DNA of 64,000 nt from Parasphingorhabdus sp. (GTDB lineage Bacteria; Pseudomonadota; Alphaproteobacteria; Sphingomonadales; Sphingomonadaceae): the NCBI RefSeq assembly GCF_965233695.1, contig NZ_OZ247497.1, forward strand, positions 2,495,277 through 2,559,276. The letters are read 5' to 3'. This document shows positions 35,732 through 60,467 of this stretch, piece by piece. The position numbers were made by a program, and so were the translations under genes. Numbering within the stretch: the first letter of the stretch is position 1; the number at the start of each line of letters is the position of its first letter. Under the pieces are notes generated by a model. It had not been told where the DNA came from and did not search any database. It saw only the letters and a list, made by a program, of their open reading frames with translations.

Positions 35732-36070
35732 TTTCTTCTCCTGCAAGATCATGCTTGGGCGGCAAGGAGATGCGGCGTGCATGAAGACCAGGCCCGGATA
35801 ACGAGCAAGCGAATGGGCTATCACAAACAATTGCGATTGGAAATCAGGCTTGTGAAGTTCTTGGAATTGATAATGCTGTCGCTGACCTCATTTGGAATGA
35901 TGAGATCACATTGATCCATCCGAAGTGCAGCTGGCTGCCTTGTTTTCTGTTTATAAGTTGCGATCAAACTTCTCTATGCGCACATCGCATCAATCCCACA
36001 TAACATGCAGGATGTGCGTCGTTTGTCACTTCTCTTAAGTTCTGAACGCAACGATTCTTGCCATGTCAAA

Positions 36071-36089
36071 CTATCCGATAGGCGGATAG
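36071..36089. promoter_or_regulatory. Palindromic operator candidate, site 1
   Basis: CTATCCG-ATAGG-CGGATAG, a perfect 7-5-7 palindrome upstream of the TonB receptor. Confidence 0.65.
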
Positions 36090-36217
36090 GGATTTAATTG
36101 AAGCAACATTCCGTGAAAATTTGAGCAAGTTTGAAGACGGTTCGGGAGCAACCGTCAAGATAGGCGCGTTGAAAATATAGCTTTTCCAAAAGGTTCAGAT
36201 TTCACGGAGGAAAAATA

Positions 36218-38557
36218 ATGCGCGTTCAAAAAGCGAGTCTAATAGCCCTTGCAGTAGCAAGCGGATTTGTAGTTCCAAGCGTTGCGGTTGCCCAAACATC
36301 TGAGGCTGCCGAAGCAGATGATGGCAATATCATTGTCGTAACAGCGCGTAATCGTGCTGAGAATATTCAGGAAGTGCCTCTCGCCATCACAGCGTTTGAC
36401 GCAGAAGACATATCCCGCCAGGCGATTCAGGAACTGGATGATGTTGCGCGCTTTACGCCAGGTTTCAGCTTTGAGGATTTCTCCGGCGGTATCGGCACAC
36501 CGGTTATTCGCGGACAGGCCCAAACACGCGTCACCGCTCTGGAATCGAATGTTTCAACCTTTTTGGACGGCATTTACATACCGCGCGCCTGGGCTGTGGA
36601 CCTCGGTACAACAAGTCTTCAGCGTATTGAGATCGTCAAGGGACCGCAAAGCGCGCGTTATGGACGCAACGCTTTTGCCGGCGCAATCAACTATATTCCA
36701 AGGAAAGCCGAGATTACGGGAGAGATTTCCGGCGAGATCGAGGGCACAATTGGGTCTGACGAGCGCTATGATATTGGCGGTTTTCTAAACTTCTCGGTCA
36801 ATGAATGGTTCGCCATTGCAGGTTCTTACGAATATTCATCGTTTGACGGCTCTTGGGAAAATGACCACCCGTTCGCCGACAGCCTGGACTTGGATCGCGG
36901 TACATCTGGCAATGTCGGTGGTCGGGACAATCAAGCCATTTCGGTTTCCGCAGCGTTCAAACCGTTGGACGGAGTACGCCTGGAAGCGTCCTACAATCAT
37001 TTTAACAGAAAAGAAGAAGCCCGCGCGAACCGCTATCTGGCGGAAGTTCTGGGTGATTTCAATTGTGGTTCCAATCGCAGCATTTTTGGCGTGGGCCCGA
37101 ATCCTGCGCTGATTTGCGGCGACTTGCCTGCACCGGGAGATTCAGTCATCGTCGACCCGCGGGCCTATGGTGTCCACTCAAAAACCGGCTTTTTCCGGGC
37201 CAATCTGGAAATTGACGTTTCTGATGCGCTGACATTCAGCTATTTGTTCGGCAACGTAAACGGCGATGTTGATATTGCGGTCAGCGGCGAACCGGAACCC
37301 ATCAATTGCGGAACGCTGGTTGCCGGGCGGTGTAATTTCCAGAATACACCGGTTGGCAGCATGGATTATGATTCCCATGAGGTACGGCTCAATTTTGACA
37401 ATTCGGGTCAGTTTCGTGGAGCAATCGGGATCTATTATTCCGATGGTACGGACATCACGACATTTACGAGCAACAATCTAAATCCGATTGTCAGTGCCGA
37501 TGATCCTTTTCCGGGCGATCCATTCGCCTTTCTTTTGGGAGACACCACCACCGACACCGAAATCAAATCGATTTTTGGTGAAATTCATTGGACATCGGCA
37601 AGTGGCGTGCTGCGCTTGGGCGCAGAAGGACGATATTCCGAGACCGAGATTACAGCAACGGACAATCGCAGAGCTTTAATATTGGGTGATACGTTTAAAG
37701 ATTTCGCGCCGCGCTTTACGGCCGAATATGATCTCAGTGATGAGAGTCTTCTTTTTGCCACGGTCGCAAAAGGGTCAAAGGCCGGTGGCTTCAACCCCAC
37801 AGCAATCGCTCCGGAGAACCAGGTTTTTGACAAAGAGACCAACTGGACCTTTGAAATTGGTTCCAAAAATACGTTTCTGGGCGGTGATCTTCGTCTCAAC
37901 GGATCGATATATTACACGGATTGGCGGGATGTGGTGATCAATTCTCCCGATCCGGATGCGACTGACCCGAATGCCACCGCAATTGCCCAAAATCTTGGTG
38001 GTGCGTCTATCTATGGTATCGAGCTTGATGCCTTTTATCAGATCACCGATAACCTGAGCATTGACGCGACTTTCTCGCATTCTGAAGCAACCTATGATGA
38101 TGGTACTATCGATCAGCGCTTTGCGCGGACACGTGGTACGCCGGGTACGCCCTTTTTCATCTCCGCACCTTGTGATGATGTGGTGTGTAACTCCAATGGC
38201 GATGTTGGCGGCAATGATATTGAACGTACGCCACCGACCCAGGCATCCTTTGGTATCCAGTGGGAGGGAGAAATCGGTTCCGGAGATAGCAATTATTATC
38301 TGCGGACGGATTTCAGCTATCAAAGCGACTTTTTCGCATCGACGGCCAATGTCGGGACAATTCCGGACCGCTTTCTGGTCAATGGCAGTGCAGGCGTTAC
38401 CTTCGGAAACTTTTCTGTAAATGCCTGGATACGCAATGCTTTTGACAAAAAATATGTGTCCAATGCTTTCGTTGTGGTTCTGCCCTTCGGTACCACCTAT
38501 GGTGAATTTTTCGGTGAGCGGCGCACATTTGGCCTGACAGGCAAAGTTAATTTCTAA
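36218..38557 (+). CDS. TonB-dependent receptor
   Basis: RBS GGAGG; signal peptide; VTARNRAENIQEVP, IVKGPQSARYGRNA; terminal Phe. Confidence 0.93.
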   Translation: MRVQKASLIALAVASGFVVPSVAVAQTSEAAEADDGNIIVVTARNRAENIQEVPLAITAFDAEDISRQAIQELDDVARFTPGFSFEDFSGGIGTPVIRGQAQTRVTALESNVSTFLDGIYIPRAWAVDLGTTSLQRIEIVKGPQSARYGRNAFAGAINYIPRKAEITGEISGEIEGTIGSDERYDIGGFLNFSVNEWFAIAGSYEYSSFDGSWENDHPFADSLDLDRGTSGNVGGRDNQAISVSAAFKPLDGVRLEASYNHFNRKEEARANRYLAEVLGDFNCGSNRSIFGVGPNPALICGDLPAPGDSVIVDPRAYGVHSKTGFFRANLEIDVSDALTFSYLFGNVNGDVDIAVSGEPEPINCGTLVAGRCNFQNTPVGSMDYDSHEVRLNFDNSGQFRGAIGIYYSDGTDITTFTSNNLNPIVSADDPFPGDPFAFLLGDTTTDTEIKSIFGEIHWTSASGVLRLGAEGRYSETEITATDNRRALILGDTFKDFAPRFTAEYDLSDESLLFATVAKGSKAGGFNPTAIAPENQVFDKETNWTFEIGSKNTFLGGDLRLNGSIYYTDWRDVVINSPDPDATDPNATAIAQNLGGASIYGIELDAFYQITDNLSIDATFSHSEATYDDGTIDQRFARTRGTPGTPFFISAPCDDVVCNSNGDVGGNDIERTPPTQASFGIQWEGEIGSGDSNYYLRTDFSYQSDFFASTANVGTIPDRFLVNGSAGVTFGNFSVNAWIRNAFDKKYVSNAFVVVLPFGTTYGEFFGERRTFGLTGKVNF

Positions 38558-38592
38558 TCGCTTGTGTCACAAAGCCTTTGGCTTCGTCACGC

Positions 38593-38658: not shown

Positions 38659-40998
38659 TCAACCCAAAAATAACTCAGCCGCTGCATCGATAATCGCGTT
38701 CTCGTCTATCCGGTAGGCATTGTAGAGATCAGGCAAGTCTCCGGTCTGGCCAAAGCGATCGGTGCCGAGAGGACTGACCTTCATGCCTCGCACAGCACCC
38801 AGCCAGGACAGGGCTGAAGGAGAGCCATCCAGAACCGTGATCAAGCCTGCATCCGGTGACAATTCGTCCAGCATTAGCTTGGCATGACAGGCCTCTTTAT
38901 CTTTGCCTTGCCAGCGCGCGGCACATTGGTCTGACCATCCGCGATGGAGCAGGTCGGGTGATGTCACGTTGAGCAATCCCAGCCCGGGGATATCCGTGAC
39001 CAGACTGTCATAAGCCTGCAGCACTTCCGGCGCTATCGCTCCGGTAAAGGCAATGGCTGCCTCCGCGCCTTTGGTGGGTCTGCGTAACCAATAGGCACCC
39101 TTGAGTGCGTCCGCTTCCCAGCTGTCATTGTCACGCTCTATTTGCGCGATCGATCGTGTGCTGAGGCGCAAATAAACGGAACTGCCGTCTTCGCGCTGCA
39201 TATGATCAAAGGCCCAGCGCATCATCAACGCCACTTCGTCAGCCCAGACCGGCTCGAAATAGACCAGGCCAGGTTGCCCCATCCCGATCAATGGTGTGTT
39301 GATCGATTGATGGGCGCCGCCCTCCGGCCCTAGTGTCAGGCCGGACGGTGTCCCGACCAGCAGAAAACGCGCGTCCTGATAACAGCCATAGTTTAGCGCA
39401 TCGAGGCCGCGGGCGATGAAGGGATCATAGACCGTCCCCACCGGCAGTAAACGCGTTCCGAAATGCGGGGCCGTCAGTCCCATCGACGTGAGCATCAGGA
39501 AGAAATTATTCTCCGCTATGCCCAATTCGATATGCTGACCTGCGCCATGCGCGGACCATTTTTGCGCGGAAGGAATTTTGGCTTGTTGGAAAACATCGGC
39601 TACTTCCTGACGCCGAAAAAGACCGCGCTGGTTCACAAAGGCACCGAGATTGGTTGTCTGGGTAACGTCGGGAGCCGTCGTAACGATCCGGTCGCCGATT
39701 TCTTCTCCCGATTTTGCAAGATCCAGAAGAACTTTGCCAAACGCAGCCTGGGTGGATTGTTCCGCACCCGCTGGTACTTCGAACCGATCCGGGACGACGA
39801 CCGGAGCGGCCTTTGGCTCCGGTTTCTGCCTTGCAAGCGCGCTTTTTTCGACGAAAGCTTTCAGTTGTGCTGCCGCATTGTCGCCCAGTCCGCCATAGGC
39901 TTCCCACTCAGCGCCTTGCTCGATTCCCAGGCTGTTGCGATAACCCTCCATCTGCGTCGGGTTCATCATGCCGGAATGATTGTCTTTGTGACCCGCCAAG
40001 GGCAGGCCAAAGCCCTTCACGGTATAGGCAATGAACAGTGTTGGTCGCTCATCATCACAGGCATCAAATGCATCCGACAGCGTTTCGACACAGTGACCGC
40101 CGAGATTGGTCATCAGATCGGCAAGTGCATCATCATCGAAACCGGCGAGCAGCTTTTTCACATTGGGCTTGCCGCCGATATCGTCAATCAGCCGCTTGCG
40201 CCATGCTTCGCCACCTTGATAGGTCAGCGCGGCAAAATCCGCATTGGGACAATTGTCTATCCATTGTTCGAGTGTCTTGCCGCCGGGTTTCTTGAATGCC
40301 GCCTGTTGCCGCTTGCCGTATTTCAAGGTGACCACGCGCCAGCCGCAGGTTTCGAAAATGTCATCAAACCGGCGGAACATGCGGTCTGCGGTCGTGCTGT
40401 CCAGCGACTGCCGGTTGTAATCCACAACCCACCAGCAATTGCGGATATCATGCTTGTAGGCCTCGATCAGGCACTCATAGATATTGCCTTCGTCCAGCTC
40501 GGCATCACCCATCAGGGCGATCATCCGGCCGGCATCGCTTTCTTCCATTTGCCCATGGGCGATCAGATAATCTTGCATCAAACTGGAAAAAGCGGTCACC
40601 GCCACACCAAGGCCGACCGACCCGGTGGAAAAATCGACCGGGATGGTGTCTTTGGTCCGCGACGGGTAGCTTTGCACACCGCCGAGGCCGCGAAAGCGTT
40701 CCAGCTTTTCCTGACTCTGATTGCCGAGCAGATAGTGGATGGCATGGAGCACAGGGCCAGCATGGGGCTTGACCGCGACTTTGTCCTGCGGTCGCAACGC
40801 ATGAAAATATAGCGCCGCCATGATCGCGGTTATCGAGGAACAGCTCGCCTGATGACCGCCGACTTTCAGCCCGTCACGCTTTTCCCGGATGTGATTGGCA
40901 TTGTGCACCGTCCATGACGACAGCCACCGCAACCGTGATTCCAGCAGTTCCAGCATCTGCATTTCATTTGATATCTTACTGTTCGTTTTTGTGGTCAT
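38659..40998 (-). CDS. AceE-like / transketolase-like ThDP-dependent 2-oxoacid dehydrogenase E1
   Basis: KVGGHQAS, STGSVGLG, ThDP motif GDAELDEG, ELGIAENN, EGGAHQS. Confidence 0.85.
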   Translation of the reverse strand: MTTKTNSKISNEMQMLELLESRLRWLSSWTVHNANHIREKRDGLKVGGHQASCSSITAIMAALYFHALRPQDKVAVKPHAGPVLHAIHYLLGNQSQEKLERFRGLGGVQSYPSRTKDTIPVDFSTGSVGLGVAVTAFSSLMQDYLIAHGQMEESDAGRMIALMGDAELDEGNIYECLIEAYKHDIRNCWWVVDYNRQSLDSTTADRMFRRFDDIFETCGWRVVTLKYGKRQQAAFKKPGGKTLEQWIDNCPNADFAALTYQGGEAWRKRLIDDIGGKPNVKKLLAGFDDDALADLMTNLGGHCVETLSDAFDACDDERPTLFIAYTVKGFGLPLAGHKDNHSGMMNPTQMEGYRNSLGIEQGAEWEAYGGLGDNAAAQLKAFVEKSALARQKPEPKAAPVVVPDRFEVPAGAEQSTQAAFGKVLLDLAKSGEEIGDRIVTTAPDVTQTTNLGAFVNQRGLFRRQEVADVFQQAKIPSAQKWSAHGAGQHIELGIAENNFFLMLTSMGLTAPHFGTRLLPVGTVYDPFIARGLDALNYGCYQDARFLLVGTPSGLTLGPEGGAHQSINTPLIGMGQPGLVYFEPVWADEVALMMRWAFDHMQREDGSSVYLRLSTRSIAQIERDNDSWEADALKGAYWLRRPTKGAEAAIAFTGAIAPEVLQAYDSLVTDIPGLGLLNVTSPDLLHRGWSDQCAARWQGKDKEACHAKLMLDELSPDAGLITVLDGSPSALSWLGAVRGMKVSPLGTDRFGQTGDLPDLYNAYRIDENAIIDAAAELFLG

Positions 40999-41074: not shown

Positions 41075-41091
41075 TGTCCATCTGATGGACA
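41075..41091. promoter_or_regulatory. Palindromic operator candidate, site 2
   Basis: TGTCCATC-T-GATGGACA, a perfect palindrome in the divergent E1/ALDH intergenic region. Confidence 0.6.
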
Positions 41092-41202: not shown

Positions 41203-42717
41203 ATGCAAGAGATCAATCTTTCCATCCCCCGGCCTGGTCCGGCTGCGACAAAGTTTCTGGAAAAAGGCATATATTCCAATCTGGTAAATGGCGAATGGCT
41301 GTCCTGCCAAAGCGGTGAAACCTTTGATACGCTCGATCCCGCAACCGGTGAAGTGATCGGAAAGCTTCAGAGATCGGGGGCAGGGGATGTCGAAAAGGCG
41401 GTCCGCGCGGCGCGCAACGCTTTTGACAACGGATCATGGTCCAAAATAACCCCGATGGAACGCAGCCGGATCCTCTGGAAAATAGCGGACCTGTTGGAAG
41501 CCAATATTGACGAACTGGCGGAACTGGAAACGCTGGATCAGGGAAAAGCGCTATATGTCGGGCGCTGGGCAGAAATTCCCGGTGCAGTGAACCAGTTTCG
41601 ATATTTTGCCGGCCTGGCGACCAAGATCGAGGGCGCAACCATTCCCACGTCGATCAATTACCAGCCCGAGGGCAAGGAGGTTTTCGCCTATACCCAGAAA
41701 GAACCGGTGGGCGTGGTCGGTGCGATTGTACCGTGGAATTCGCCTCTGGTTCTCACCGCAATGAAGCTCGCTCCTGCCCTGGCGGCCGGGTGTACGGTGG
41801 TGCTGAAGCCGGCGGAGAATACATCACTGACAGCAGTAAGGCTGGTTGAACTGATGCAGGAAGCCGGGCTGCCCGACGGCGTGATAAATCTGGTAACGGG
41901 ATTCGGGCATGAGGCCGGCGCTGCTTTGGCCGAACATAAGGATGTCGATAAAATCGCGTTTACCGGTTCGACGCAAACCGGTCGCGCCATCATGAATGCG
42001 GCGCAAGGCAATTTGAAACGGATAACATTGGAGCTCGGCGGAAAGTCGCCGGTCATCATCATGCCTGATGCCGATATTGATGCGGCTATTCAAGGCGCTG
42101 CCAATGCGATATTCTTCAATGGCGGACAGGTGTGTATCGCCGGATCCCGCCTATACTGCCACCGCTCGATCATGGATAAAGTGGCCGAGGGGATTGCTGC
42201 GATTGGCGGACAGATCAAGCTCGGCCACGGTCTTGATCCGGAAACGCAAATGGGGCCGTTGGTGTCGAAAGAACATAGCGCCAAAGTTGCCGCCTATATT
42301 GCGGACGGCAAATCGGCTGGCGCCTCGATATTGTCGGGGGGCGAAACAGGTGGTCCCAATCAGAGTTTTGTCGAACCGACCGTGATCACGGATGTGACGC
42401 CGGATATGCGGATTGTCCGCGAAGAAATTTTCGGTCCAGTGGTCGTTGTGACCCCGTTTGACGATACAGAGGAAGTTGTCGCTGCTGCGAACGATAGCGA
42501 CTATGCGCTGGCAGCTGGCGTCTGGACCGAAGGCCTTTCGAACGGCATGCGTATGGCTAATCGCCTGAAAGCCGGAACGGTCTGGGTCAATGGCCATGCC
42601 ATGTACGATGCGTCGCTTCCCATTGGCGGGATGAAACAGTCGGGCTGGGGCCGCGATAGTGGGCAGGCTGCTCTGGAAAACTATCTGGAGCTAAAGACCG
42701 TCTGCGCGATCATCTGA
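41203..42717 (+). CDS. NAD(+)-dependent aldehyde dehydrogenase
   Basis: PWNSP, KPAENT, FTGS, LELGGKS, catalytic Cys in GQVCIAG, EEIFGP. Confidence 0.95.
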   Translation: MQEINLSIPRPGPAATKFLEKGIYSNLVNGEWLSCQSGETFDTLDPATGEVIGKLQRSGAGDVEKAVRAARNAFDNGSWSKITPMERSRILWKIADLLEANIDELAELETLDQGKALYVGRWAEIPGAVNQFRYFAGLATKIEGATIPTSINYQPEGKEVFAYTQKEPVGVVGAIVPWNSPLVLTAMKLAPALAAGCTVVLKPAENTSLTAVRLVELMQEAGLPDGVINLVTGFGHEAGAALAEHKDVDKIAFTGSTQTGRAIMNAAQGNLKRITLELGGKSPVIIMPDADIDAAIQGAANAIFFNGGQVCIAGSRLYCHRSIMDKVAEGIAAIGGQIKLGHGLDPETQMGPLVSKEHSAKVAAYIADGKSAGASILSGGETGGPNQSFVEPTVITDVTPDMRIVREEIFGPVVVVTPFDDTEEVVAAANDSDYALAAGVWTEGLSNGMRMANRLKAGTVWVNGHAMYDASLPIGGMKQSGWGRDSGQAALENYLELKTVCAII

Positions 42718-42721: not shown

Positions 42722-43639
42722 TCAGCCGAGTTGTTCCGGAAAATGGGCTTCGTGATTGTCGGCATACCAGTCAGCAATTTCTTCTCTTGTCGCCCACCAT
42801 ATGCCGTCCAGCCCCTGCGCATATTCAATAAATTCTCGCAAGGCGCGGATGGTATAGGCGCGGCCCGATACGTGCGGATGCAGGCCAACATTCATGATCC
42901 GTCCGGTTGTTGCGCCTTCCTTGTGCAGCACTGTCAGCTCTTCAATCAGCAGGTCGCGATACTCATCGGTGGTGCGGGCGTTGCGGGTCAATATGGTGAA
43001 GTCGTTGATGACATTGGAATAGGGCGTCGCGACTATCGGCCCTGCATCCGTGCGGATCATATAGGGCTGATCATCATTCATGATATCGCAGTAAAATTTG
43101 AAGCCTTCCTCGACCAATATGGTGGGCGTATTCAATGTTCCGCGTAGCGAGGAGGACAGCCAACCTGTGGGTCGTTTGCCCGTATGCTTTTCATACATCT
43201 CGACCGACCGGCGAATAATGTCGCGTTCGGCATCAATATCATCATGAAAATCCGTCAGCAGTTCGCCCTGCTCATGATTATGGGCAATCAGTTCCCAGCC
43301 GCGCTCCAGACAGGCATCGGTCATGGCCTTGCGCCGCTCAAAGGTTACCGCATTGGTGGTGCATCCTGCTTTGGCGCCAAGTTCGTCAAAAAGATCAAAC
43401 ATGCGCCAGATACCGACGCGCTGGCCATATTCGCGCCAGCTATAGTTCGGATAATCGGGTATCCGCCCGGCCAGTGCATTGGGCAGCAAGGCAGGGCCAC
43501 CGGCATAATAGGGCTGGTCCGTATCTTTCACGAGATCCCAGGTTTCCAGATTGAAGGTAAACATCAATGCCACTTTTGCGCCGTTCGGCCACTTCAGCGG
43601 CGCACGCTCTGGCAGCGGGACATAATCATAATCAAACAT
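42722..43639 (-). CDS. Polysaccharide-deacetylase-fold amidohydrolase (PuuE/allantoinase-like)
   Basis: WPNGAKVA, NLETW, EYGQRVGIWR, IAHNH, DDQPY, LHPHVSG. Confidence 0.85.
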   Translation of the reverse strand: MFDYDYVPLPERAPLKWPNGAKVALMFTFNLETWDLVKDTDQPYYAGGPALLPNALAGRIPDYPNYSWREYGQRVGIWRMFDLFDELGAKAGCTTNAVTFERRKAMTDACLERGWELIAHNHEQGELLTDFHDDIDAERDIIRRSVEMYEKHTGKRPTGWLSSSLRGTLNTPTILVEEGFKFYCDIMNDDQPYMIRTDAGPIVATPYSNVINDFTILTRNARTTDEYRDLLIEELTVLHKEGATTGRIMNVGLHPHVSGRAYTIRALREFIEYAQGLDGIWWATREEIADWYADNHEAHFPEQLG

Positions 43640-43652
43640 CTGTATGTCTTTC

Positions 43653-44432
43653 CTAAAATTCTTCCATCAGGCGGCCGAATCCGCTGACCTGATCGGTAAT
43701 GCCATTTTGGCGCAGCGCATTCCAATAGGTTGCGGTGTTGATCGCGATGACGGGCTTGCCCAGATACATTTCTGCTGCTGCCGCCAAGCGCGTCATAGAC
43801 AGGTTGGTTCCAACCTGGACGAGTGCATCAACATCATCGCCATCAAGAGCCCGCAATTCTTCTCGCAATGTCTCTGTTGGTACTTGCGCAATCGAAGTCC
43901 AGCTGGGACAGCGCAGGCAAGTGTCTCGGACGACTTCAACACCATGATCGGCCATGAAATGGGCAACATGCGCATTGGCTGACGGGTAGTAAGGTGACAG
44001 CACCACAATCTTTTTGATCCCGCCATAGGCTTTGAAAGCCTCGATCAGCGATTGGGATCCCGTGCATAATTTCAGACCCGCCTCGCTCTCGATATTCTCG
44101 CGCCATTTCTGCGCGCCTTCGGCCCCACCGTAAAAGGTGACGGCGGACATGCCCATGACCAGATAGTCGGGATTGCAGGTCAGGACACCGCGTACAGCAT
44201 CCAGCGTGTTGCGGGAAATTTCCAGCGTGCCTGCCATGAAAGTTTCGTCCGAGATTGCCTGCGCGTCTTCCACGACAATTCGGCTATAGTGATTGGTCAC
44301 ACCGCGCACACGCAAATCATCAAAATCCGGCTGGACGACAGTGTTGGTAGACGGCCCCAGAACCCCGAACAATCTGCGATAGCCAAGAGCGTCGGGATCA
44401 GGGCGGGGTTTTGGATTAGACTTCAGGGGCAT
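43653..44432 (-). CDS. Asp/Glu racemase superfamily protein (maleate isomerase / arylmalonate decarboxylase-like) lacking both catalytic Cys
   Basis: GPSTNTVVQPD, LSPY, KPVIAINTA; GMSA and VGTNL at the usual Cys positions. Confidence 0.82.
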   Translation of the reverse strand: MPLKSNPKPRPDPDALGYRRLFGVLGPSTNTVVQPDFDDLRVRGVTNHYSRIVVEDAQAISDETFMAGTLEISRNTLDAVRGVLTCNPDYLVMGMSAVTFYGGAEGAQKWRENIESEAGLKLCTGSQSLIEAFKAYGGIKKIVVLSPYYPSANAHVAHFMADHGVEVVRDTCLRCPSWTSIAQVPTETLREELRALDGDDVDALVQVGTNLSMTRLAAAAEMYLGKPVIAINTATYWNALRQNGITDQVSGFGRLMEEF

Positions 44433-45746: not shown

Positions 45747-45763
45747 TATCCGTCGAGTGGATA
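45747..45763. promoter_or_regulatory. Palindromic operator candidate, site 3
   Basis: TATCC-GTCGAGT-GGATA; shares the 10-mer AAACTATCCG with site 1; divergent intergenic region. Confidence 0.62.
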
Positions 45764-46799: not shown

Positions 46800-46807
46800 A
46801 GCCCGCG

Positions 46808-47632: not shown

Positions 47633-47641
47633 AGGAAGATA

Positions 47642-50266: not shown

Positions 50267-50269
50267 GCT

Positions 50270-51217: not shown

Positions 51218-51504
51218 TCTGCGCCCGTCAGATCACCGATAATGGTTTTGACAATCGCGCCAGTGCGTTGATCCAACCGGCTCTGCAGCGTTTCATCGGG
51301 CTGATAATTTTCAACCGCCTCTGTAACGTCGATGCCTTTGTCCGCCAGTATTTTTTCCAGCACCATCTGCCGGTCGGTCAGCACGCAGATTTCCCGGGTC
51401 AGACTGATCAGGGCCCGACCGAGATTGTCGACTTGTTCGGGATGCAGCAGCTTGCCTTCGGGGAAGTTAAAGCTGGTAGGCGTGTCGCGATCCGGACCGC
51501 TCAT
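51214..51504 (-). CDS. Small hypothetical helical protein
   Basis: 4-bp overlaps with both neighbours; DNLGRALISLTREICVLTDRQMVLE. Confidence 0.75.
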   Translation of the reverse strand: MSGPDRDTPTSFNFPEGKLLHPEQVDNLGRALISLTREICVLTDRQMVLEKILADKGIDVTEAVENYQPDETLQSRLDQRTGAIVKTIIGDLTGAE

Positions 51505-52541: not shown

Positions 52542-53965
52542 GATTTCTCCTGTTTATTCGCTTCATTTTGGGCACTGTTCTGTGCGCCGGAAGCCTGCAA
52601 TTCCTGTTCGGTTAACTTATAGCCCGATAAAATCCAGATGGCGACGAGCCCAAATAGGGCAGGGAGCCAGCTCACTGAAAATAGCAGGGCGGTGTCGACA
52701 TTGCCACCTTGCGGCACGTCAAAGGGCAGCTTGTTGTTAAACCCGGCGAAGGACAGCGCGAAGCCCACGATCAGCGGGCCGACCGCGCCGGTCAGCTTCT
52801 CCACGAAACTATATAGCGCAGTAAATGCGCCCTCGCGCCGCACGCCGGTGCGGTTGGCATCGGCATTGATGATATCGGTCAGCATCGACATCGCCATGAC
52901 CACATTACCGGTAAACGCAATCCCGACGAATGCGGCGCGCACCACGATTGACCATAAAGGCTCGCCCTCGCTGGCCAGGGACCAGCTCAGCGCGTATAAA
53001 ATATTGACGCCGGCCGCCAGATAATAGGCGTTCTTTTTCCCGTATCGCTGGGAGAATTTCACGAGCAGCGGCGCGAAGATAATCGTCGAAATTGTCACTG
53101 TCGTCCCGAAGATCGCCAGAATGTTGAAATCCCGGCCAAGGCTTTGGACGAAAAAATAGGCAAAAGCGGCGCCTGCGGTTTGCACGCCCATCAGTTGTGC
53201 AAATTTCACGCTAATCAGGCGCAGAAAATGCTTGTTGCTGCGGACCGCGTTAAATTCTTGTACCACTTGAGCTGCGTTGCTTTTGGTGCTTTTCTGCGCG
53301 CCCTGCGTGAACCGGGCAGAAGAGGTAGTGAAATAGGCGATCATGGTGCTGATCAGGATGAGTACCGCACAACCGACGCCGACAATGGCATAGCTTGATG
53401 GTTCGGTTTTGCCGAGTGCTTCGAGTACCACCTTCACTCCGGCTGTTGCCACGAAAGAACCGAGCGAGATAAAAACCATGCGATAGGCATGGATCGAGGA
53501 GCGTTCATGATAATTATCGGTCATTTCCGCCGGCATCGACATATAGGGAATATTGTAGATCGTGTAGGCGATGGCGTAAAAGCTCAGGACTATGAAAATG
53601 TAAAAGGCCGTCAGATACTGGTTCTCGAATGACGGCGAGGTAAAGATCAGAGCAAAGCTGATCGCGCCGGTAATCGAGCCCCAGAACAGAAAGGGCCTGC
53701 GCCGTCCCTTGGCCGATTCAAATCGGTCGCTCCACACGCCAACGATCGGATCTGTAACAACGTCAATCAGTTTGGCCAGAAATATGACAAGCCCGGCAAG
53801 CCACGGCTCGATTTGCAAAATACTGGCCGTGAACAGCAGGATCAGGCCGGAAACACCATTCATCAGCAGCGCGACGCCAAATGCACCGGAGCCCCAGCCG
53901 AGTTTCAGGGAAGCGGGAAGAGCCTGTTTGGTCCTGACGTCGGATGCTTCGGCTAAGGTGGCCAT
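52538..53965 (-). CDS. MFS transporter, GPH/MelB-like
   Basis: DVVTDPIVGVWSDR, GRRRPF, IPYMSMPAEMT, RREGAF. Confidence 0.88.
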   Translation of the reverse strand: MATLAEASDVRTKQALPASLKLGWGSGAFGVALLMNGVSGLILLFTASILQIEPWLAGLVIFLAKLIDVVTDPIVGVWSDRFESAKGRRRPFLFWGSITGAISFALIFTSPSFENQYLTAFYIFIVLSFYAIAYTIYNIPYMSMPAEMTDNYHERSSIHAYRMVFISLGSFVATAGVKVVLEALGKTEPSSYAIVGVGCAVLILISTMIAYFTTSSARFTQGAQKSTKSNAAQVVQEFNAVRSNKHFLRLISVKFAQLMGVQTAGAAFAYFFVQSLGRDFNILAIFGTTVTISTIIFAPLLVKFSQRYGKKNAYYLAAGVNILYALSWSLASEGEPLWSIVVRAAFVGIAFTGNVVMAMSMLTDIINADANRTGVRREGAFTALYSFVEKLTGAVGPLIVGFALSFAGFNNKLPFDVPQGGNVDTALLFSVSWLPALFGLVAIWILSGYKLTEQELQASGAQNSAQNEANKQEKS

Positions 53966-53971
53966 GAACTG

Positions 53972-55261
53972 CTATTTCCCTTCTTGCGGCACGGGTTGCG
54001 GTTCGTCAGGCCCCCGCTTGATCGCATTGATAACAAGATTGGGAATGTAGCTGTTGTCCCATGGCTTGTCTTTCGGTGGACGGTCGCCTGTTCGCACAAT
54101 GATCAATCTTTGCGAGGGGACAATATAGACCACCTGATTGCCATTGCCGTCAAACAGGAACAGATCCCTGTCGGCATAGGGCTCGCTGTGCAGCGTTTTG
54201 CCGGCTTCCATTGACGGATGCAGCGGCCCGCGGCTTTCGACATAGTCACCGGCAACCCAGACGCCGAGGCCGGCATGCGGATTTTCTTTGGTCGGGGTTC
54301 GCATGGCATTGACATAGCCATCCGGAAGCAGTCTTTCGCCCTCCCAGACCCCGTCATTCAGCAACAAAATACCCAGCCTGACCCATGTTTGCCCGGGCAG
54401 TTGAATGCAGCATCCGGCATGGGCAACACCACCGGGCCGGTTGACCCAGACCGTCCCACCCTGAGCGCCAATGGGGATCAGCAACGCGTCGCTGACATAA
54501 TCGTGATAGCGTTGTCCGGTCGCGCGCTCGATAACCGGCGCGACCAGTTCGGAATTGGCATTGGCATATTCGTACCGGCTGCCCGGTTCGTTCACCAGGG
54601 GATATTCATTGATGATCACTTCGTCATGGCGGGGGTGGAGATAGGCGCGGTTCAGCACATTTTCCGGGCCGCCTCCAAAACCCTGCGGCAACAACCCGCT
54701 GCGCATGTCGAGCAGGTGGCGGATCAGGATTTTGGATTTGCCGGGATCGCTTTTCCATTCGGTGATGAAGTCTGCAACCGGCTGGTCGAGCGATTTAATA
54801 TGCCCCTGCTGGATAGCGCGGCCGACGATGATCGCGGTCAATGGCTTGGCCAGCGATTTCGCATTGATGAGATAATCGCGATCCGCCTCGCCAAAATAGC
54901 TTTCCTGGACCAGCGCCCCGTCATGCCAGACCAGAAAGGCGGAACTGTTGCGCTCCCGGGCAAATTGCTCTGCCTTTTGCAGGGGCGATGCATCGATGCG
55001 TGCTGGTCCTACCGGTAGCGGCTGATAGGGCGACGCGCCGCGGACCGGCTCCAGCGGGTCGTAGGCGGGCAGGCCGCCACCGGCGATGGCGGCCTTCTGT
55101 TGTGCTTCGTAACGCTGCATGTAGAGCGCTTCGTCGGCCGCGCCGGTGCTTGCGGCGCTATCAGGCGGTGCGGCTGCTCCAACTTCCGTGTTCATGGTGC
55201 ATCCGCCAATCGCCATGGCAAGCGGCAGGATGAAGTGCGCGGTTCTAGTCCATAAGGTCAA
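53972..55261 (-). CDS. Serine hydrolase lipoprotein (beta-lactamase fold)
   Basis: TTG start at 55261 after AAGGGA gives the signal peptide MTLWTRTAHFILPLAMAIGGC; SxxK (SLAK); YAN; GNGNQ. Confidence 0.85.
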   Translation of the reverse strand: MTLWTRTAHFILPLAMAIGGCTMNTEVGAAAPPDSAASTGAADEALYMQRYEAQQKAAIAGGGLPAYDPLEPVRGASPYQPLPVGPARIDASPLQKAEQFARERNSSAFLVWHDGALVQESYFGEADRDYLINAKSLAKPLTAIIVGRAIQQGHIKSLDQPVADFITEWKSDPGKSKILIRHLLDMRSGLLPQGFGGGPENVLNRAYLHPRHDEVIINEYPLVNEPGSRYEYANANSELVAPVIERATGQRYHDYVSDALLIPIGAQGGTVWVNRPGGVAHAGCCIQLPGQTWVRLGILLLNDGVWEGERLLPDGYVNAMRTPTKENPHAGLGVWVAGDYVESRGPLHPSMEAGKTLHSEPYADRDLFLFDGNGNQVVYIVPSQRLIIVRTGDRPPKDKPWDNSYIPNLVINAIKRGPDEPQPVPQEGK

Positions 55262-56228
55262 CGGTAATCCCCTTGTTTTCGGCCTCGGCCATCCGCCAGA
55301 TCGCATGCGCGGCGGCGAGATCCTGCGAGGCGACACCGAGTGATTTGTACATCGTAATCTGGTCATCATTCTGACGGTCTGGAGCGTTGCCATTGATCAC
55401 TTCGCCGATTTCACCGACAATATGAGCATCCGTTATAACACCCCGCTCAATCGCACCGAGCAATTCACCGGCTGCTGCCATCGCTGCGTCACGATAGTCG
55501 ACGTAGAAGCGTGATTTGGAAACTGCTCCGTCATCAACTTCAGCAGTCGTGGGAATGGCGGAGCCGACGAGATTAATATGCTGGCCGGCCTTTAAATCGG
55601 CTGCAAACAGAACTGCCGTCTTGGCAGAAGTGGTGGTGCAGATAATGTCCGCATCCGCCGCGGTCTCGGCGACCGTTTTCCACGCAATCGTCTCTACGCC
55701 GGTCTCATCAGCTACCTTGGCGGCAAAGGCACTGGCGCGCTCTGTATCACGGCCCCAGACATTGATATTATCAATGTCCCGCACCGCCCGCATGGCATGC
55801 ACATGGCGCATAGCCTGTTCGCCGTTGCCGATAATCGCCAGTCTGGTTGCGTTCTTGCGCGCCAGAATGTCCGTTGCGAGCGCGCTTGCTGCGGAGGTCC
55901 GGATCGCAGTTAGCGAGGACCCCTCGATCATCGCCAGCGGAATGCCCTTGACGCTATCAAATAGCATCACCATCCCGACATGGGTGCCGAGCGGGTCGTC
56001 ATGCGGGCGATCATATTTGCAAACCAGCTTGATACCAAAGCAAGCGGGTTCTCCCAATGTACCGGGCATGATAGCCAGTTTTCCGGGCGCATCGGGGATC
56101 GGCATGAATTGCCGGATCGGAAGGGAGACGTTGCGGCGGGAGGTCGCGGACATCGCTTGTCGCATAACGTCGACACAGGGCCTAACCGGCAAAAGCCGCT
56201 CAACATCGGATTGAGTAACAATCCGCAT
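55245..56228 (-). CDS. Ornithine cyclodeaminase / mu-crystallin family protein (imine reductase-like)
   Basis: GIKLV, LTAIRTSAASA, IIGNGEQA, ADIICTTT, YKSLGVASQDL. Confidence 0.9.
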   Translation of the reverse strand: MRIVTQSDVERLLPVRPCVDVMRQAMSATSRRNVSLPIRQFMPIPDAPGKLAIMPGTLGEPACFGIKLVCKYDRPHDDPLGTHVGMVMLFDSVKGIPLAMIEGSSLTAIRTSAASALATDILARKNATRLAIIGNGEQAMRHVHAMRAVRDIDNINVWGRDTERASAFAAKVADETGVETIAWKTVAETAADADIICTTTSAKTAVLFAADLKAGQHINLVGSAIPTTAEVDDGAVSKSRFYVDYRDAAMAAAGELLGAIERGVITDAHIVGEIGEVINGNAPDRQNDDQITMYKSLGVASQDLAAAHAIWRMAEAENKGITVDLMD

Positions 56229-56728
56229 CAGCCCGGATTTCTTGGCGGCAGGAACCGCATCTTGTCCATCACCTCCTGGACATTGTCGGGCCGGTCAAAT
56301 GGTTCCGGCATAGCGTCACCCGGTTTGCGGTCCTTGCCAATGGCATAGAACCAGTCTTCCAGTCCGGGCGGGAAGAAGACCCAGAACATTTTCATGTCGA
56401 TATCGCCGGTATTCTTGATCCAGTGGGTGCAGTTGCGGGCAAACAGGATTGTCGTTCCGGGAACGAATTTTGACACTTTGCCATCAATATCGACCTCACC
56501 CGTTCCTTCATAAACAAAAACCAGTTCGTGATTTTGTTTATGACCATGCTCGCGCACCATACAGCCGGGCGGCAATAACTGAATCCCGCTGGAAAAGGTG
56601 TCATAAGGCATGTTGTCGGGCGTGAGATTGACATCGACATAGCCGCGCGAGGGCATGGGTTGCCATAGGGAACGACCTTCATCGGGCCCGACAATGACCG
56701 ATTGTCCCTTGGTGATGTCGTCCGCCAT
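56228..56728 (-). CDS. Cupin-domain protein
   Basis: REHGHKQNHE motif 1; ARNCTHWIKN motif 2. Confidence 0.85.
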   Translation of the reverse strand: MADDITKGQSVIVGPDEGRSLWQPMPSRGYVDVNLTPDNMPYDTFSSGIQLLPPGCMVREHGHKQNHELVFVYEGTGEVDIDGKVSKFVPGTTILFARNCTHWIKNTGDIDMKMFWVFFPPGLEDWFYAIGKDRKPGDAMPEPFDRPDNVQEVMDKMRFLPPRNPG

Positions 56729-56737
56729 GACAGCCTC

Positions 56738-57547
56738 CTATTGCGCCAAGAATTCCAGTACGCGTTTGTTATAGATCTCGGTCGATACAATCGGGCTGAA
56801 GTGCCCGCCGCGGTCGAGCAGGTGGGTCTCCGCTCCCTGGATCAAATCGCCCATTTCCTGGGTAAAACCGGGCGGTGTGATTTGATCATCCATGGACCCG
56901 ATGCATAATGTCGGTGTGGCAATCTCATGCAGACGGCTGCGCAAGTCATGCGTGTAGACTGCGTTAATTCGCGACAATTCCACTTCCAATCCCGGAAATG
57001 CCGCAAGCCGTTCTTCCATAAAAGCTCGTGCCGATGTCATTTGCGGCTGCAAATGAGAACTCGGCATGGCGAGATAAGTGCCCATAGTGAGATAAGCGAG
57101 CGGCCCGCAGCTTATCAGTATCTCTCGCCGCGTCCGGAAAAGCTCGGTCAAATAAGTGTCAGGACCGGCCCAGCTGCATGAAAGCACGAGCTTTGTAAGC
57201 CGCGCCGGTTGATCAAGTGCGATATGCTGTCCGATTGCACCGCCAGTGGAATGGCCAACAAGGCTTGCTTTCTTGATCTCCATGGCATCCATCAATGCGA
57301 GCACATCTTGCGCCATATGTTCGGCACCATAGACAACCTTGTCGGGCGTGCTGTTACCGCAACCGCGATGGTCGAACGTGATAACCCGAAAATCTTTGGC
57401 AAAGTCCTGGACCTGATTGTTCCAGAAGGCTCCGCGCCCTCCTAGGCCGGCAACCAGCAAGAGGTCTGGCCCATTGCCGGTGATCTCGACGTGAATTTCC
57501 GCGTCACCGACATCAATGTGCTGTATATCGGTCGGGATCACACTCAT
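56738..57547 (-). CDS. Alpha/beta hydrolase, RutD-like, with Ser nucleophile
   Basis: ATG at 57547 overlaps the ALDH stop; GLGGRGAFW, FDHRGCG, GHSTGG, GGH. Confidence 0.85.
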   Translation of the reverse strand: MSVIPTDIQHIDVGDAEIHVEITGNGPDLLLVAGLGGRGAFWNNQVQDFAKDFRVITFDHRGCGNSTPDKVVYGAEHMAQDVLALMDAMEIKKASLVGHSTGGAIGQHIALDQPARLTKLVLSCSWAGPDTYLTELFRTRREILISCGPLAYLTMGTYLAMPSSHLQPQMTSARAFMEERLAAFPGLEVELSRINAVYTHDLRSRLHEIATPTLCIGSMDDQITPPGFTQEMGDLIQGAETHLLDRGGHFSPIVSTEIYNKRVLEFLAQ

Positions 57548-59025
57548 AGGGCAGTGAATACCGTTTTGGTGTTGAGGTAGTTTTCCAGGCCGTCTTTGCC
57601 GTTTTCCCGGCCAATGCCTGACTGTTTGTAACCACCGAGCGGCACATCCCAATCCGCTCCCATGACCGCGTTGATACACATGATACCGGCTTTGATCTTG
57701 CCGACCATACGGTGCGCGGTAGAGATATTTTGCGTCCATACGGCTCCGGCCAGACCGTATTGGGTGTCGTTGGCTAAGGCGAGCGCTTCTTCCTCAGTCT
57801 TGAAACTCTGAGCCACCACCACCGGGCCAAAGATTTCTTCCTGAACAATTTTCATGTCATTTCTGGTCTGATCGATAACCGTTGGCTCAAGGAAATAACC
57901 GCTTTCGCCATGACGCACGCCGCCCGATGCAATATGTGCACCTTCTTTTTGGCCTTGTTCGATATAGGCGCTGACCCGCTCGAACTGTTTGGCGGATACC
58001 AAGGGGCCCATGGTGCTCTCTTCATCCAGACCGTTGGTAAGATTCATCGATTTACCTACGGCGGCGATGCCATTGACAACTTCGTCCTTAATATCTTCAT
58101 GCACATAGATGCGTGAGGGTGCGGTACAGGTCTGACCGCTGTTGAAGAATATGCCCATGGCAGATGCTGGAATGGCTTTTTCAAGGTCCGCATCGGGCAT
58201 GATGATGTTGGGCGATTTTCCGCCAAGCTCCAGCGTGACTTTCGTCAGGTTCTCGGCCGCCGCATGGGCGATAATTTTGCCTGTTGTGGTAGAGCCGGTA
58301 AATGCAATTTTATCAATACCGGGATGATTGATCAGACTATTGCCAACCGTATGGCCGTATCCGGTCACGATATTCAATACGCCTTCGGGAAGACCCGCTT
58401 CCAATGCCAGTTCCCCCAAGCGCAGTGCAGAAAGCGATGTGTCTTCGGCCGGTTTCAATATGGCGGTACAACCAGCGGCCAATGCAGGACCAAGTTTCAT
58501 GGCCGCCATCACCAACGGGTAATTCCACGGTACAATCAGTGCAACTACACCAACAGGCTCCTTCAGCGTGTAGACGTGATGATCGCCCGGCAAATTTATG
58601 GTGTGGGTTGTTCCCTGAATTTTGTCGGCCCAGCCCGCATAATAGCGGAAGGCCCCGATGGAGGCAAAAACATCACCGCGGGCAAAGTTAATCGGCTTGC
58701 CATTATCGAGTGTTTCCAGCTGCGCCAGTTCTTCGGCATGCGCCTCCATCAAATCCGCGATCTTGTGAATTATGCGTGAGCGCTCGCCAGGCTTCATCTC
58801 CGGCCAGGCGCCGCTTTCAAATGCCTCTCGTGCGGTCGAAACGGCCTCGTCAATATCGGCATCGCTCGCATTGCCAATTCCGGAAATCCGATGGCCATCG
58901 GCAGGGTTTATGACGTCAATCAGCGCGTCACTGCCAGCGTCCTTCCACTGACCGCCAATTAGTAATTTCTGGTCCCTGGCGATGAATGATGTTGTTTCGG
59001 ATGCGAGGGTGATCACGGCCATCAA
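57544..59025 (-). CDS. NAD(+)-dependent aldehyde dehydrogenase
   Basis: PWNYP, KPAEDT, FTGS, LELGGKS, GQTCTA, EEIFGP. Confidence 0.95.
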   Translation of the reverse strand: MMAVITLASETTSFIARDQKLLIGGQWKDAGSDALIDVINPADGHRISGIGNASDADIDEAVSTAREAFESGAWPEMKPGERSRIIHKIADLMEAHAEELAQLETLDNGKPINFARGDVFASIGAFRYYAGWADKIQGTTHTINLPGDHHVYTLKEPVGVVALIVPWNYPLVMAAMKLGPALAAGCTAILKPAEDTSLSALRLGELALEAGLPEGVLNIVTGYGHTVGNSLINHPGIDKIAFTGSTTTGKIIAHAAAENLTKVTLELGGKSPNIIMPDADLEKAIPASAMGIFFNSGQTCTAPSRIYVHEDIKDEVVNGIAAVGKSMNLTNGLDEESTMGPLVSAKQFERVSAYIEQGQKEGAHIASGGVRHGESGYFLEPTVIDQTRNDMKIVQEEIFGPVVVAQSFKTEEEALALANDTQYGLAGAVWTQNISTAHRMVGKIKAGIMCINAVMGADWDVPLGGYKQSGIGRENGKDGLENYLNTKTVFTAL

Positions 59026-60410
59026 AAAGACTCCATTTCGGTTTTCTGTATCATTTTGCGATAGGGTTTGAGCGCGAAACAGACCAAAACCAAGCCAATA
59101 ATCATTGTGGCAGGTGGCGCGAGTGCTAGCGACTGATCAATGGCGGCGGGTGATCCGAAAACATAATCAGTCAACCACGCGACCAATAGCGGTCCGGCAG
59201 AATAGCCGAGCAAATTGGCAATCAGCAGATAGACGGCAATGACCTGCGCCCGCATGCGGTTGGGGGTGATCAACGGGAATGTTGCAACACCGGCTCCAAA
59301 GGGAACAGTTCCGAAGAACAAGACTAGGGCTAGCAGAGCCAGCGCAACCCATGGTGACGATACTAACGGAAAAGCTATTGCGAAGGGTAAAGCGCACAAT
59401 ATCGCGATGATCGGCAACCGCAAAGTAGCGTCCTTTATTCCGGAAGCCAGCATTTTCTCTGCTGCAAAACCGCCTGCGACAACGCCTGTGACGCCGCCAA
59501 ACATCACTACTGGTCCAAAAAATTGACCGACCTCCAATTGAGTCCATTCATGAACCCGAATGAAATAGCTTGGTGCCCATGCGCCGATACCAAACTGGGC
59601 CGCTGCAAAACAGGAGAAGCCGAAGAAAAGCGGAAAGAACACAAGGGCATTGCTACGGATAAAGCTCAATATTTCCAGAGCTGGCGGAGCGTCATCATCG
59701 GAAAGAACGACATTACCATCTTTGCGGGCGGGTTCGCGAATCAGCAACAGGCAAAAGAAAACCGGAACACTGAGTAGGGATACCGTAAAAAAAGTTATCT
59801 GCCACGGTTTGAACGTCCCGAAAGGCAGCGTTATCGGTCCTATCGCTTCCAATTGAGCGTAAAGATAACCGCCGATCACAAGAGCCAGACCCGATCCAAT
59901 AAAGCCCGTTCCGGTAAAAACACCGATAGCGGCGGGTAGTTTTTCTTTGGGAAAATAGTCGCTGATCATCGAAAAACCGGCAGGCGACAGGGTTGCCTCG
60001 CCGATCCCGACGAACATCCTTGCGAAAAATAGAAAAACAAAGCCCATGGCGAGGCCGCTGCCGAATGTTGCAGCAGACCAGCAGATGAGGCCGCCCAATA
60101 TTACCCATTTCCTGTTATATCGATCTGCGATCCAGGCCAGTGGAATAGCCATGACTGCGTAAAGCAACGCGAAGGAAAAGCCTTGCAACAAGCTGATCTG
60201 GACATCGGTAAGGCCAAGATCGATCTTGATCGGATCCACCAACAGATTGATAATTTGTCGATCAATATAACTTACAATTGCGGCAAAAGAGAGCGCTGCC
60301 ACGACCAACCAAGAACGCAAGGGGGAATGAGCGGTATCCTCTGGTGATACCGATGGAGTGGCTGGTTCCAAATCAATTGCAGGTGAAATTGAAGTCATTG
60401 GATGTGACAC
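59022..60410 (-). CDS. MFS transporter (spinster-like); start may be 60398
   Basis: SYIDRQIINLLVDPIK, ADRYNRK, ARMFVGIGEA, SMISDYFP. Confidence 0.9.
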   Translation of the reverse strand: MSHPMTSISPAIDLEPATPSVSPEDTAHSPLRSWLVVAALSFAAIVSYIDRQIINLLVDPIKIDLGLTDVQISLLQGFSFALLYAVMAIPLAWIADRYNRKWVILGGLICWSAATFGSGLAMGFVFLFFARMFVGIGEATLSPAGFSMISDYFPKEKLPAAIGVFTGTGFIGSGLALVIGGYLYAQLEAIGPITLPFGTFKPWQITFFTVSLLSVPVFFCLLLIREPARKDGNVVLSDDDAPPALEILSFIRSNALVFFPLFFGFSCFAAAQFGIGAWAPSYFIRVHEWTQLEVGQFFGPVVMFGGVTGVVAGGFAAEKMLASGIKDATLRLPIIAILCALPFAIAFPLVSSPWVALALLALVLFFGTVPFGAGVATFPLITPNRMRAQVIAVYLLIANLLGYSAGPLLVAWLTDYVFGSPAAIDQSLALAPPATMIIGLVLVCFALKPYRKMIQKTEMESF

Positions 60411-60450
60411 TATGATACTGTTGCCAAAAGCGCAGCATGAGATGCAGGTT

Positions 60451-60467
60451 TAACCGTCAGCCGGATA
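60451..60467. promoter_or_regulatory. Palindromic operator candidate, site 4 (one mismatch)
   Basis: TAACCG-TCAGC-CGGATA in the divergent MFS / oxidoreductase intergenic region. Confidence 0.55.

Follow-up and report, generated by a model that had tools for sequence, protein, structure and literature searches.

How is a large catabolic gene cluster controlled when no transcription factor is encoded among its visible genes? The question is raised by a stretch of 64,000 nucleotides (nt) from Parasphingorhabdus sp. (contig NZ_OZ247497.1, positions 2,495,277 to 2,559,276; herein referred to as the window and numbered from its first letter), in which an original prediction, made from the sequence, described one palindromic motif at four promoters of a cluster beginning near 36 kb (sites 1–4) and proposed that a single regulator encoded outside the window, possibly of the IclR family, coordinates the whole cluster. 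All four palindromes are found where that prediction placed them (table 1), and Pfam and NCBIfam searches of all open reading frames (ORFs) agree with it that 36–64 kb encodes no protein with a DNA-binding domain. We conclude that the four palindromes are probably the operators of one IclR-family transcription factor coordinating a multi-operon catabolic and uptake cluster of ~37 kb, a reading that we develop below from site statistics, comparative genomics and the logic of the half-sites.

The consensus first given for the sites, TRTCCR-N5-YGGAYA, is exact at sites 1, 2 and 3, which are its only exact matches in 64 kb (0.02 expected from 100 shuffles); site 4 breaks it at position 3 (TAACCG) and is recovered when up to one mismatch is allowed, at which level the window contains seven matches against 1.6 expected. 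The suspicion that unrelated palindromes merely resemble one another by chance has some footing, since 21 perfect palindromes of the 6-N5-6 form occur in the window and the consensus was derived from the sites themselves. An independent, noncircular matrix was therefore built (21 bp, 18 sites), exclusively from metagenome relatives of 61–72% identity or from regions past the window end. Across 64 kb, its four best matches are sites 1, 3, 2 and 4, in that order (scores in table 1), and the fifth, at 29098 with a score of 12.5, was rejected as a site: it falls in the codons EIDHALDKL of a SnoaL-like coding sequence, and scores of this size also arise in shuffled DNA. Matches scoring at least 14.75 are expected 0.2 times per window in shuffled sequence and 0.23 times per 64 kb in 1.11 Mb of real sphingomonad DNA, against the four found. 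Moreover, there are only four divergent intergenic regions in 36–61 kb (35831–36217, 40999–41202, 45638–45836 and 60399–60517; 909 bp in total), and each of them carries exactly one palindrome. With the sites kept in relatives down to 61% protein identity and with the footprint seen at site 4 (both described below), chance resemblance is effectively refuted by the matrix, the real-DNA background and that footprint, and we allow it next to no probability. The four sites are real, statistically exceptional and confined to the four promoter regions.

Site 1 is centered 138 nt 5′ of the start of a TonB-dependent receptor gene. The center of site 2 lies 85 nt 5′ of a gene for an E1-like 2-oxoacid dehydrogenase component (ATG 40998) and 120 nt 5′ of an aldehyde dehydrogenase gene. 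Site 3 falls between a minus-strand operon led by an FAD monooxygenase and a plus-strand operon led by a PhyH-family dioxygenase, and site 4 is mid-way in the 119-bp region between divergent MFS transporter and VAO-type oxidase genes, 61 nt from the MFS start (60398) and 59 nt from the oxidase start. The longest ORF of the oxidase (ATG 60437) would include site 4; the true start of the gene, however, is ATG 60518, as this codon is preceded by AAGGGA and agrees with the start of the 526-residue product called in the closest relative (L098), and site 4 is therefore intergenic, as had been claimed for all four. Site 3 sits within a sigma-70-like match (TTGCCA-17-GATATT, 45737–45765), which is a weak hint, promoter and terminator scans of the region having given match numbers not above those of shuffles. 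Two secondary matches 64 and 32 nt from site 3 (45681–45701 and 45713–45733) were set aside: they contain the left half-site only (TATCCG and TATTCG, respectively), are not kept in L002 and are probably nonfunctional. No second site in tandem, at 18–22 nt from any of the palindromes, was found.

Conservation was followed in 80 Sphingomonadales loci found by a genome scan with the E1-like protein (orthologues 76–99% identical) and in 16 loci found by a metagenome scan with the VAO-type oxidase (45–72% identity); those metagenome loci that are long enough to show neighbors have the same gene order as the window. The best homologue of the group-A flavin monooxygenase (FMO2) that follows the oxidase is 94% identical (P. 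cellanae), and that of the next relative 93%. Sites 1–3 are retained in L001, an uncultured Sphingomonadaceae isolate whose E1-like protein is 99% identical, and in L002 (93%), the nearest loci, which place the window in Parasphingorhabdus; single arm changes stay within the same small set of hexamers; in L002, one such change makes the arms of site 3 perfectly complementary and another introduces a mismatch into site 1. Upstream of the receptor gene, the DNA of the window, L001 and L002 cannot be aligned up to the palindrome and is conserved from there to the start codon, whereas neither the fadB-like divergent partner of site 1 nor the TTGCCA upstream of it, which had been noted as context shared with site 3, is kept in L001 or L002. 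Because conservation runs from site 1 toward the receptor only, site 1 belongs to the receptor promoter and the fadB-like neighbor is incidental; the earlier description of all four sites as lying in divergent promoters is hence unsupported on this one side. In L082 and L094, the matrix finds weaker matches (12.3 and 13.6, respectively) 5′ of the genes orthologous to that of the receptor.

In L001, L002 and L008–L011, the DNA 5′ of the E1-like gene retains the footprint of site 2 amid flanks that diverge (37% mean column identity); L006 and L007 have a degenerate copy, which aligns at another place in this upstream region. For site 4, a comparison of 12 orthologous MFS/oxidase intergenic regions, with 38% mean column identity, gives ten invariant columns, eight of which are in the motif along with one nearly invariant column (T, the near-invariant A, CCG and GGA.A); the remaining two are a CA ~17 nt upstream. 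Relatives also have additional sites at orthologous promoters upstream of the OCD, receptor and PrpB genes, including a TGTCCA-N5-TGGACA site that precedes the PrpB-GST-GST orthologues in L015 and L019. Throughout Parasphingorhabdus and the Erythrobacter/Altererythrobacter group, the sites hold their orthologous places while the DNA around them diverges. No transcription factor gene adjoins site 2 in L006 or L008–L011, where its neighbors are isochorismatase, cytochrome c, DUF and response-regulator/Hpt genes.

What is conserved in these palindromes is the identity of the half-sites, not the complementarity of the arms. When 35 compiled sites were compared, seven had fully complementary arms, 28 had at least one non-Watson–Crick position and 16 had a pair that could not form even G–U, while the halves drew on a few fixed hexamers (TATCCG 32 times, TGTCCA 13, TATCCA 9 and TAACCG 4); hybrids of TATCCG with TGTCCA account for 7 of the 35 and are common at other promoters in the relatives. 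These data bear directly on the notion that the palindromes are RNA or DNA hairpins, such as terminators, attenuators or processing sites. A terminator-like signal was indeed called at site 1, where a weak T-rich tail comes after a stem of 7 bp; however, the pairing is broken in most sites, in many of them beyond G–U, while the halves stay fixed, and the same sequence recurs at nonhomologous promoters, 5′ of genes rather than 3′ of them, which makes hairpins a very improbable account. Half-site identity that is kept without arm pairing is to be expected of a binding site for a dimeric protein and speaks against a structural RNA or DNA element.

A candidate for this protein is found in the eight loci that reach past the window end: L097 (P. 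cellanae), L098 (isolate 245), L099 (P. marina), L100 (Altererythrobacter sp. BO-6) and the metagenome loci L082, L090, L093 and L094. In all eight, the cluster continues and encodes an IclR-family protein of 261–272 residues, the gene for which is the sole gene with a DNA-binding domain in the syntenic cluster. The protein has the two domains that place it in the family, an N-terminal HTH_IclR (PF09339) and a C-terminal IclR effector domain (PF01614), and its sequence relatives in the PDB are all IclR-family proteins. In the three Parasphingorhabdus loci (L097–L099), FMO2 is followed by a methyltransferase-like gene (MT2), an ORF of 112 amino acids (aa), a divergent promoter with a palindrome, an operon encoding acyl-CoA synthetase (ACS), a PEP-mutase-like protein, ADH and an FAD-enzyme, and then the IclR gene (263–265 aa); the other five loci keep MT2, the divergent promoter, the PEP-mutase-like gene and the IclR gene (261–272 aa), with local differences. 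The IclR gene of L097 and L098 spans 6.9–7.7 kb past the FMO2 stop, equivalent to ~70–71 kb in window coordinates. The window's own MT2 gene is 99% identical to residues 129–363 of its L098 counterpart, in frame to the last base, and synteny therefore holds right up to the window end; listed as a complete ORF of 212 aa, MT2 is by this alignment the C-terminal 235 residues of a 363-residue protein that continues past the window end.

The motif accompanies this gene. In L097, L098 and L099, exactly three matrix matches occur in 21 kb each: in the MFS/oxidase region (with a 17-bp core identical to that of site 4 in the window), in the ACS promoter and before the IclR start codon. The last of these is a perfect palindrome, TATCCGTCAGGCGGATA, 14–30 nt 5′ of the start codon in L097 and L098, and likewise perfect, TATCCGACCAGCGGATA, directly before the start codon in L099. 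A palindrome just 5′ of the IclR gene is present in six of the eight loci, and this site is centered approximately −22 from the start codon. The proposal of a single regulator beyond the window, with an IclR-type gene past 64 kb that has the same site, is in this way supported by comparative genomics. Scored against curated models, the IclR protein comes closest to MhpR (PRK09834; NF007339, NF007341 and NF007342), with 143–156 bits and a best E of 9e-46, below cutoffs of 251–299, and it reaches 89 bits against the PcaR/PcaU/PobR model TIGR02431, the cutoff of which is 284.75; judged by domains and scores, the protein of the relatives is a member of the IclR family that stands outside any named equivalog group.

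An isochorismatase-family hydrolase gene adjoins the palindrome in several relatives (L006, 9168–9800; L009, 9150–9854; L011, 9119–9751; L093, 17266–17913), where it is either divergent from the E1-like gene or just 5′ of the IclR gene. By this placement it is probably a further regulon member in these relatives; the annotated 31–64 kb of the window has no counterpart.

We hypothesize that the IclR protein encoded in the cluster occupies each 17-bp site as a dimer (or dimer of dimers), in which every TRTCCR half-site is contacted by one winged-helix domain. Should the window continue as in its nearest relatives, the regulator gene of the window organism would be located at the ~70–71 kb given above. 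The regulator is predicted to repress its own gene, because the site is centered near −22 from its start codon, and the expression of seven transcription units in the window, and of at least one more divergent pair beyond it, would be switched when a substrate or intermediate of the pathway binds to its C-terminal IclR domain. At the catabolic promoters the regulator may be a repressor or an activator, which we judge about equally likely from the sequence: the overlap of site 3 with a −35/−10-like match favors repression, and most of its closest relatives by model score, of the MhpR and PcaR/PobR type, activate their targets and repress their own genes.

Several points weigh against assigning all four sites to this regulator. 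The IclR gene has been read in relatives, the window ending before its expected position, and in L082 and L100 no site is detectable upstream of it. The W3 center of published IclR operators is not seen in the window, where the centers (ATAGG, TCTGA, TCGAG and TCAGC) contain G+C and vary between orthologues. Site 2 and its orthologues consistently read TGTCCA/TGGACA, whereas the other sites are mainly TATCCG/YGGATA. Some or all of the sites could instead be bound by a paralogous IclR protein of similar specificity that is encoded elsewhere in the genome (e.g., of the PcaR type), and a search among public runs for RNA-seq data from the window organism found none.

The distinctness of site 2 invites an alternative with two regulators, the IclR protein of the cluster acting on the TATCCG-type sites 1, 3 and 4 and a second, paralogous IclR-type factor on site 2. 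The uniformity of TGTCCA/TGGACA at site 2, at its best-kept orthologues in L001, L002 and L010 and at the PrpB site of L015 and L019 agrees with such a division, as does the independent history of the E1-like gene, which in other sphingomonads is controlled by an Lrp/AsnC neighbor. The hybrid sites tell against it, for they show the two types of half to be interchangeable within one site, and their frequency argues that the same factor reads the TGTCCA-type site 2 and the TATCCG-type sites; P. marina, furthermore, has both the site upstream of E1 and the IclR cluster. We regard two regulators as unlikely. Distinctly improbable, in our estimate, is a regulator of some other family (LysR, TetR, MarR or GntR) encoded elsewhere, next to which the neighboring IclR gene would be a coincidence. 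LysR-family boxes follow an ATC-N9-GAT or T-N11-A rule, and TATCCG-N5-CGGATA does include ATC-N9-GAT; yet no gene of these four families is present in 36–64 kb or in the extended cluster of the eight relatives, the palindrome corresponds position by position to the group 1 consensus of IclR operators, and it is the IclR gene that it directly precedes in most of these loci. A reading as a LysR T-N11-A box was rejected for want of an adjacent LysR gene in either place. One IclR-family regulator for all four sites remains the reading that we prefer, and it assigns the transcription units of 36–64 kb, annotated with Pfam and NCBIfam, as listed in table 1.

Table 1. Palindromic sites and transcription units of the cluster in window coordinates
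Feature	Position	Strand	Sequence or annotation basis	Remarks
Site 1	36072..36088		TATCCG-ATAGG-CGGATA	Exact pattern match; independent-matrix score 24.9, rank 1
Site 2	41075..41091		TGTCCA-TCTGA-TGGACA	Exact pattern match; independent-matrix score 17.3
Site 3	45747..45763		TATCCG-TCGAG-TGGATA	Exact pattern match; independent-matrix score 24.8
Site 4	60451..60467		TAACCG-TCAGC-CGGATA (TAACCGTCAGCCGGATA)	One mismatch; independent-matrix score 14.8, rank 4
TonB-dependent receptor	36218..38557	+	Pfam Plug and TonB_dep_Rec_b-barrel	Putative target of site 1
Homodimeric E1-like (AceE/transketolase-like) 2-oxoacid dehydrogenase component	38659..40998	-	Pfam, NCBIfam	Putative target of site 2
Aldehyde dehydrogenase	41203..42717	+	Pfam Aldedh	Divergent from E1-like gene; putative target of site 2
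Operon: FAD monooxygenase, Asp/Glu-racemase-type (maleate isomerase/arylmalonate decarboxylase-like) protein, PuuE-like deacetylase	42722..45637	-		Putative target of site 3
Operon: PhyH-family Fe/2OG dioxygenase, PrpB/PEP-mutase-like lyase, two GSTs	45837..49062	+		Putative target of site 3
Eleven-gene operon	49070..60398	-	Pfam	Putative target of site 4; synteny kept in L081-L100
Operon: VAO-type FAD oxidase, group-A flavin monooxygenase (FMO2)	60518..63285	+		Putative target of site 4
Methyltransferase-like MT2	63288..64000	-	Alignment to L098	Runs off window end

The eleven-gene operon encodes, in order, an MFS transporter, an aldehyde dehydrogenase, an alpha/beta hydrolase, a cupin, an OCD/mu-crystallin protein, a beta-lactamase-like esterase, an MFS_2 transporter, a methyltransferase, orf96, a chlorophyllase-like hydrolase and a further beta-lactamase-like esterase. 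The product of orf96 (51214–51504, minus strand) and the 112-aa ORF next to MT2 (L098, 12293–12631, minus strand) are paralogues (E 8e-15) that share 45% of 67 aa. Pfam gave no match for either, and each adjoins a SAM-methyltransferase-like gene of 346–363 aa, an arrangement suggestive of a conserved module of two proteins. A strong hairpin with a 15-bp stem (38593–38626), likely to be a bidirectional terminator, separates the TonB-receptor gene from the convergent E1-like gene.

The only regulators encoded in the window itself are an ECF sigma/FecR pair (1123–2816) and a LuxR/GerE protein (25209–26096), and both were rejected as regulators of the cluster, there being no sites near them and no synteny with it. 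The former belongs to a classical cell-surface signaling unit (1123–6578) in which the ECF sigma factor and FecR-like anti-sigma factor are accompanied by a TonB-dependent transducer with an STN domain, and the latter is upstream of another TonB-dependent receptor (25209–28925).

The E1-like gene may have entered this regulon from another. In 40 of the 80 loci (within L012–L080; e.g., L044, 9393–9958, and L019, 9410–9958), a conserved GCAAGGAC element is present ~60 nt before the E1-like start codon and is preceded by A/T-rich GCATAATCTGCCAA-like boxes. Most of these loci show the beginning of a divergent gene, which encodes an Lrp/AsnC-family regulator in the two that were checked by Pfam (L044 and L019); L019 also has an E2 gene after E1. 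In the clade of the window, both the Lrp/AsnC regulator and the A/T-rich boxes are absent upstream of the E1-like gene and an IclR-type palindrome is in their place, so that the gene looks to have been rewired from one regulon into another. Three further loci (L003–L005; Sphingorhabdus sp. EL138 and two uncultured organisms, with 92–93% E1 identity) have no palindrome upstream of the E1-like gene. They have a tRNA-like 3′ end immediately 5′ of it, at ~9840–9930, which was recognized by eye in the sequence.

The regulatory mechanism is ordinary IclR-type control in which nothing is unexpected, and the interest of the locus lies in an uncharacterized pathway. Of 21 cluster proteins compared with NCBIfam (19 from the window and two from L098), none reaches a curated cutoff, and the pathway may therefore be new even though its control logic is that of the textbook. 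The cluster of ~37 kb combines a TonB receptor, two MFS transporters, esterases, VAO-type and group-A flavin oxygenases, a MysH-like Fe/2OG dioxygenase, an OCD-type imine-acting enzyme and a cupin with maleate-isomerase-like and PuuE-like enzymes and with methyltransferase-like proteins that have paralogous small partners. NCBIfam and PDB sequence searches for clues to the substrate gave no equivalog-level match and weak leads only: a flavoprotein resembling 3-hydroxybenzoate-6-monooxygenase/HpxO, a RutD/PcaD-like hydrolase, an OCD/imine-reductase-like enzyme, a maleate-isomerase/arylmalonate-decarboxylase-like protein, the isochorismatase-family gene beside the sites in several relatives and the PhyH-family dioxygenase (45837–46799, plus strand), the only PDB relatives of which are MysH, of the mycosporine-like amino acid pathway (E 2e-25). 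Public runs that contain the window sequence include algal, phycosphere, biofilm and sediment metagenomes, besides several coded organisms, and a literature search for a catabolic cluster for mycosporine-like amino acids found nothing relevant. That the substrate is a nitrogen-containing ring compound made by algae is a fair guess and no more than that. Tentatively, and with more doubt than confidence in the combination, the IclR regulon might delimit an undescribed catabolic pathway of alga-associated marine Sphingomonadales, directed perhaps at an algal N-ring compound (for instance, a mycosporine-like amino acid or else an N-heterocyclic osmolyte), into which the E1-like gene has been rewired.

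The motif offers a practical handle on an uncharacterized multi-operon cluster that is conserved in marine, alga-associated Sphingomonadales: it groups the genes that act as one set (no fewer than seven transcription units within the window, and others past its end) and it names the likely sensor protein, the ligand of which would reveal the substrate. Once that ligand is known, the regulator and its operator might serve as an inducible switch or biosensor.

Comparison with known operators places the sites within the range described for the IclR family. Suvorova and Gelfand (2021) distinguished two classes of IclR-family operators, of which group 1 has the consensus GKTYCRYW3-4RYGRAMC and includes a subgroup (i), "TGT-11-ACA," with TGTYCRYW3RYGRACA (PMC8222616). 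The window sites have the same 17-bp odd-length palindrome, the half-site core T-R-T-Y-C-R and 11 bp between the outer triplets; site 2 agrees with this subgroup at every specified position outside the central W3, whereas A replaces G at position 2 of sites 1, 3 and 4 (as in TAT-11-ATA) and site 4 departs at position 3 as well. The centers of the window sites, −49 to −138 from the flanking target genes, are within the −20 to −300 where most group 1 sites are centered, and the own site of the regulator in relatives, near −22, is at the position that is most frequent for the family (PMC8222616). The tandem partner at 18–22 nt, not found for the window sites, is a difference from group 1.

Among individual regulators, PobR, PcaU and PcaR share nearly identical half-sites (TGTCCG, TATCCG and TAACCG) and the 6-N5-6 geometry with the window sites, and they also have catabolic targets and sites at their own genes. 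The operator of PobR is TTGTCCGATSATCGGACAR (TGTCCG-N5-CGGACA; Table 1 of PMC8222616). These operators, among them the predicted sphingomonad PcaR/CatR sites (TGTCCGATTATCGGATA and TAACCGATtATCGGACt; supplement of PMC8222616), however, keep a CCGAT-W-ATCGG center, unlike the window sites, PcaU and PobR use a third, direct-repeat box, and the content of the window regulon is unrelated to the beta-ketoadipate pathway. MhpR, the models of which score best with the IclR protein of the relatives, also has a 17-bp palindromic operator (GGTGCACCTGGTGCACA), but its half-site sequence differs from that of the window sites and the cluster has no mhp genes. GenR of Corynebacterium glutamicum, the precedent named in the original prediction, is indeed reported with ATTCC-N7(5)-GGAAT (Table 1 of PMC8222616), so that its citation as an IclR palindrome was correct; it is an IclR regulator of an aromatic catabolic cluster with several operators and has the same TCC-N7-GGA geometry, but its outer bases differ (ATTCC in place of TATCC or TGTCC) and it is actinobacterial.

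A functional analogue within the sphingomonads is PheR of Sphingobium sp. SHPJ-2, an IclR-family protein that represses the operon for phenanthrene catabolism until the substrate releases it, and the title of the paper also credits it with the regulation of uptake (PMC13273656). PheR differs in the GCAACG element of its 44-bp footprint, in acting at a single promoter and in having been characterized experimentally; by analogy, it is a plausible working model for the regulon of the window.

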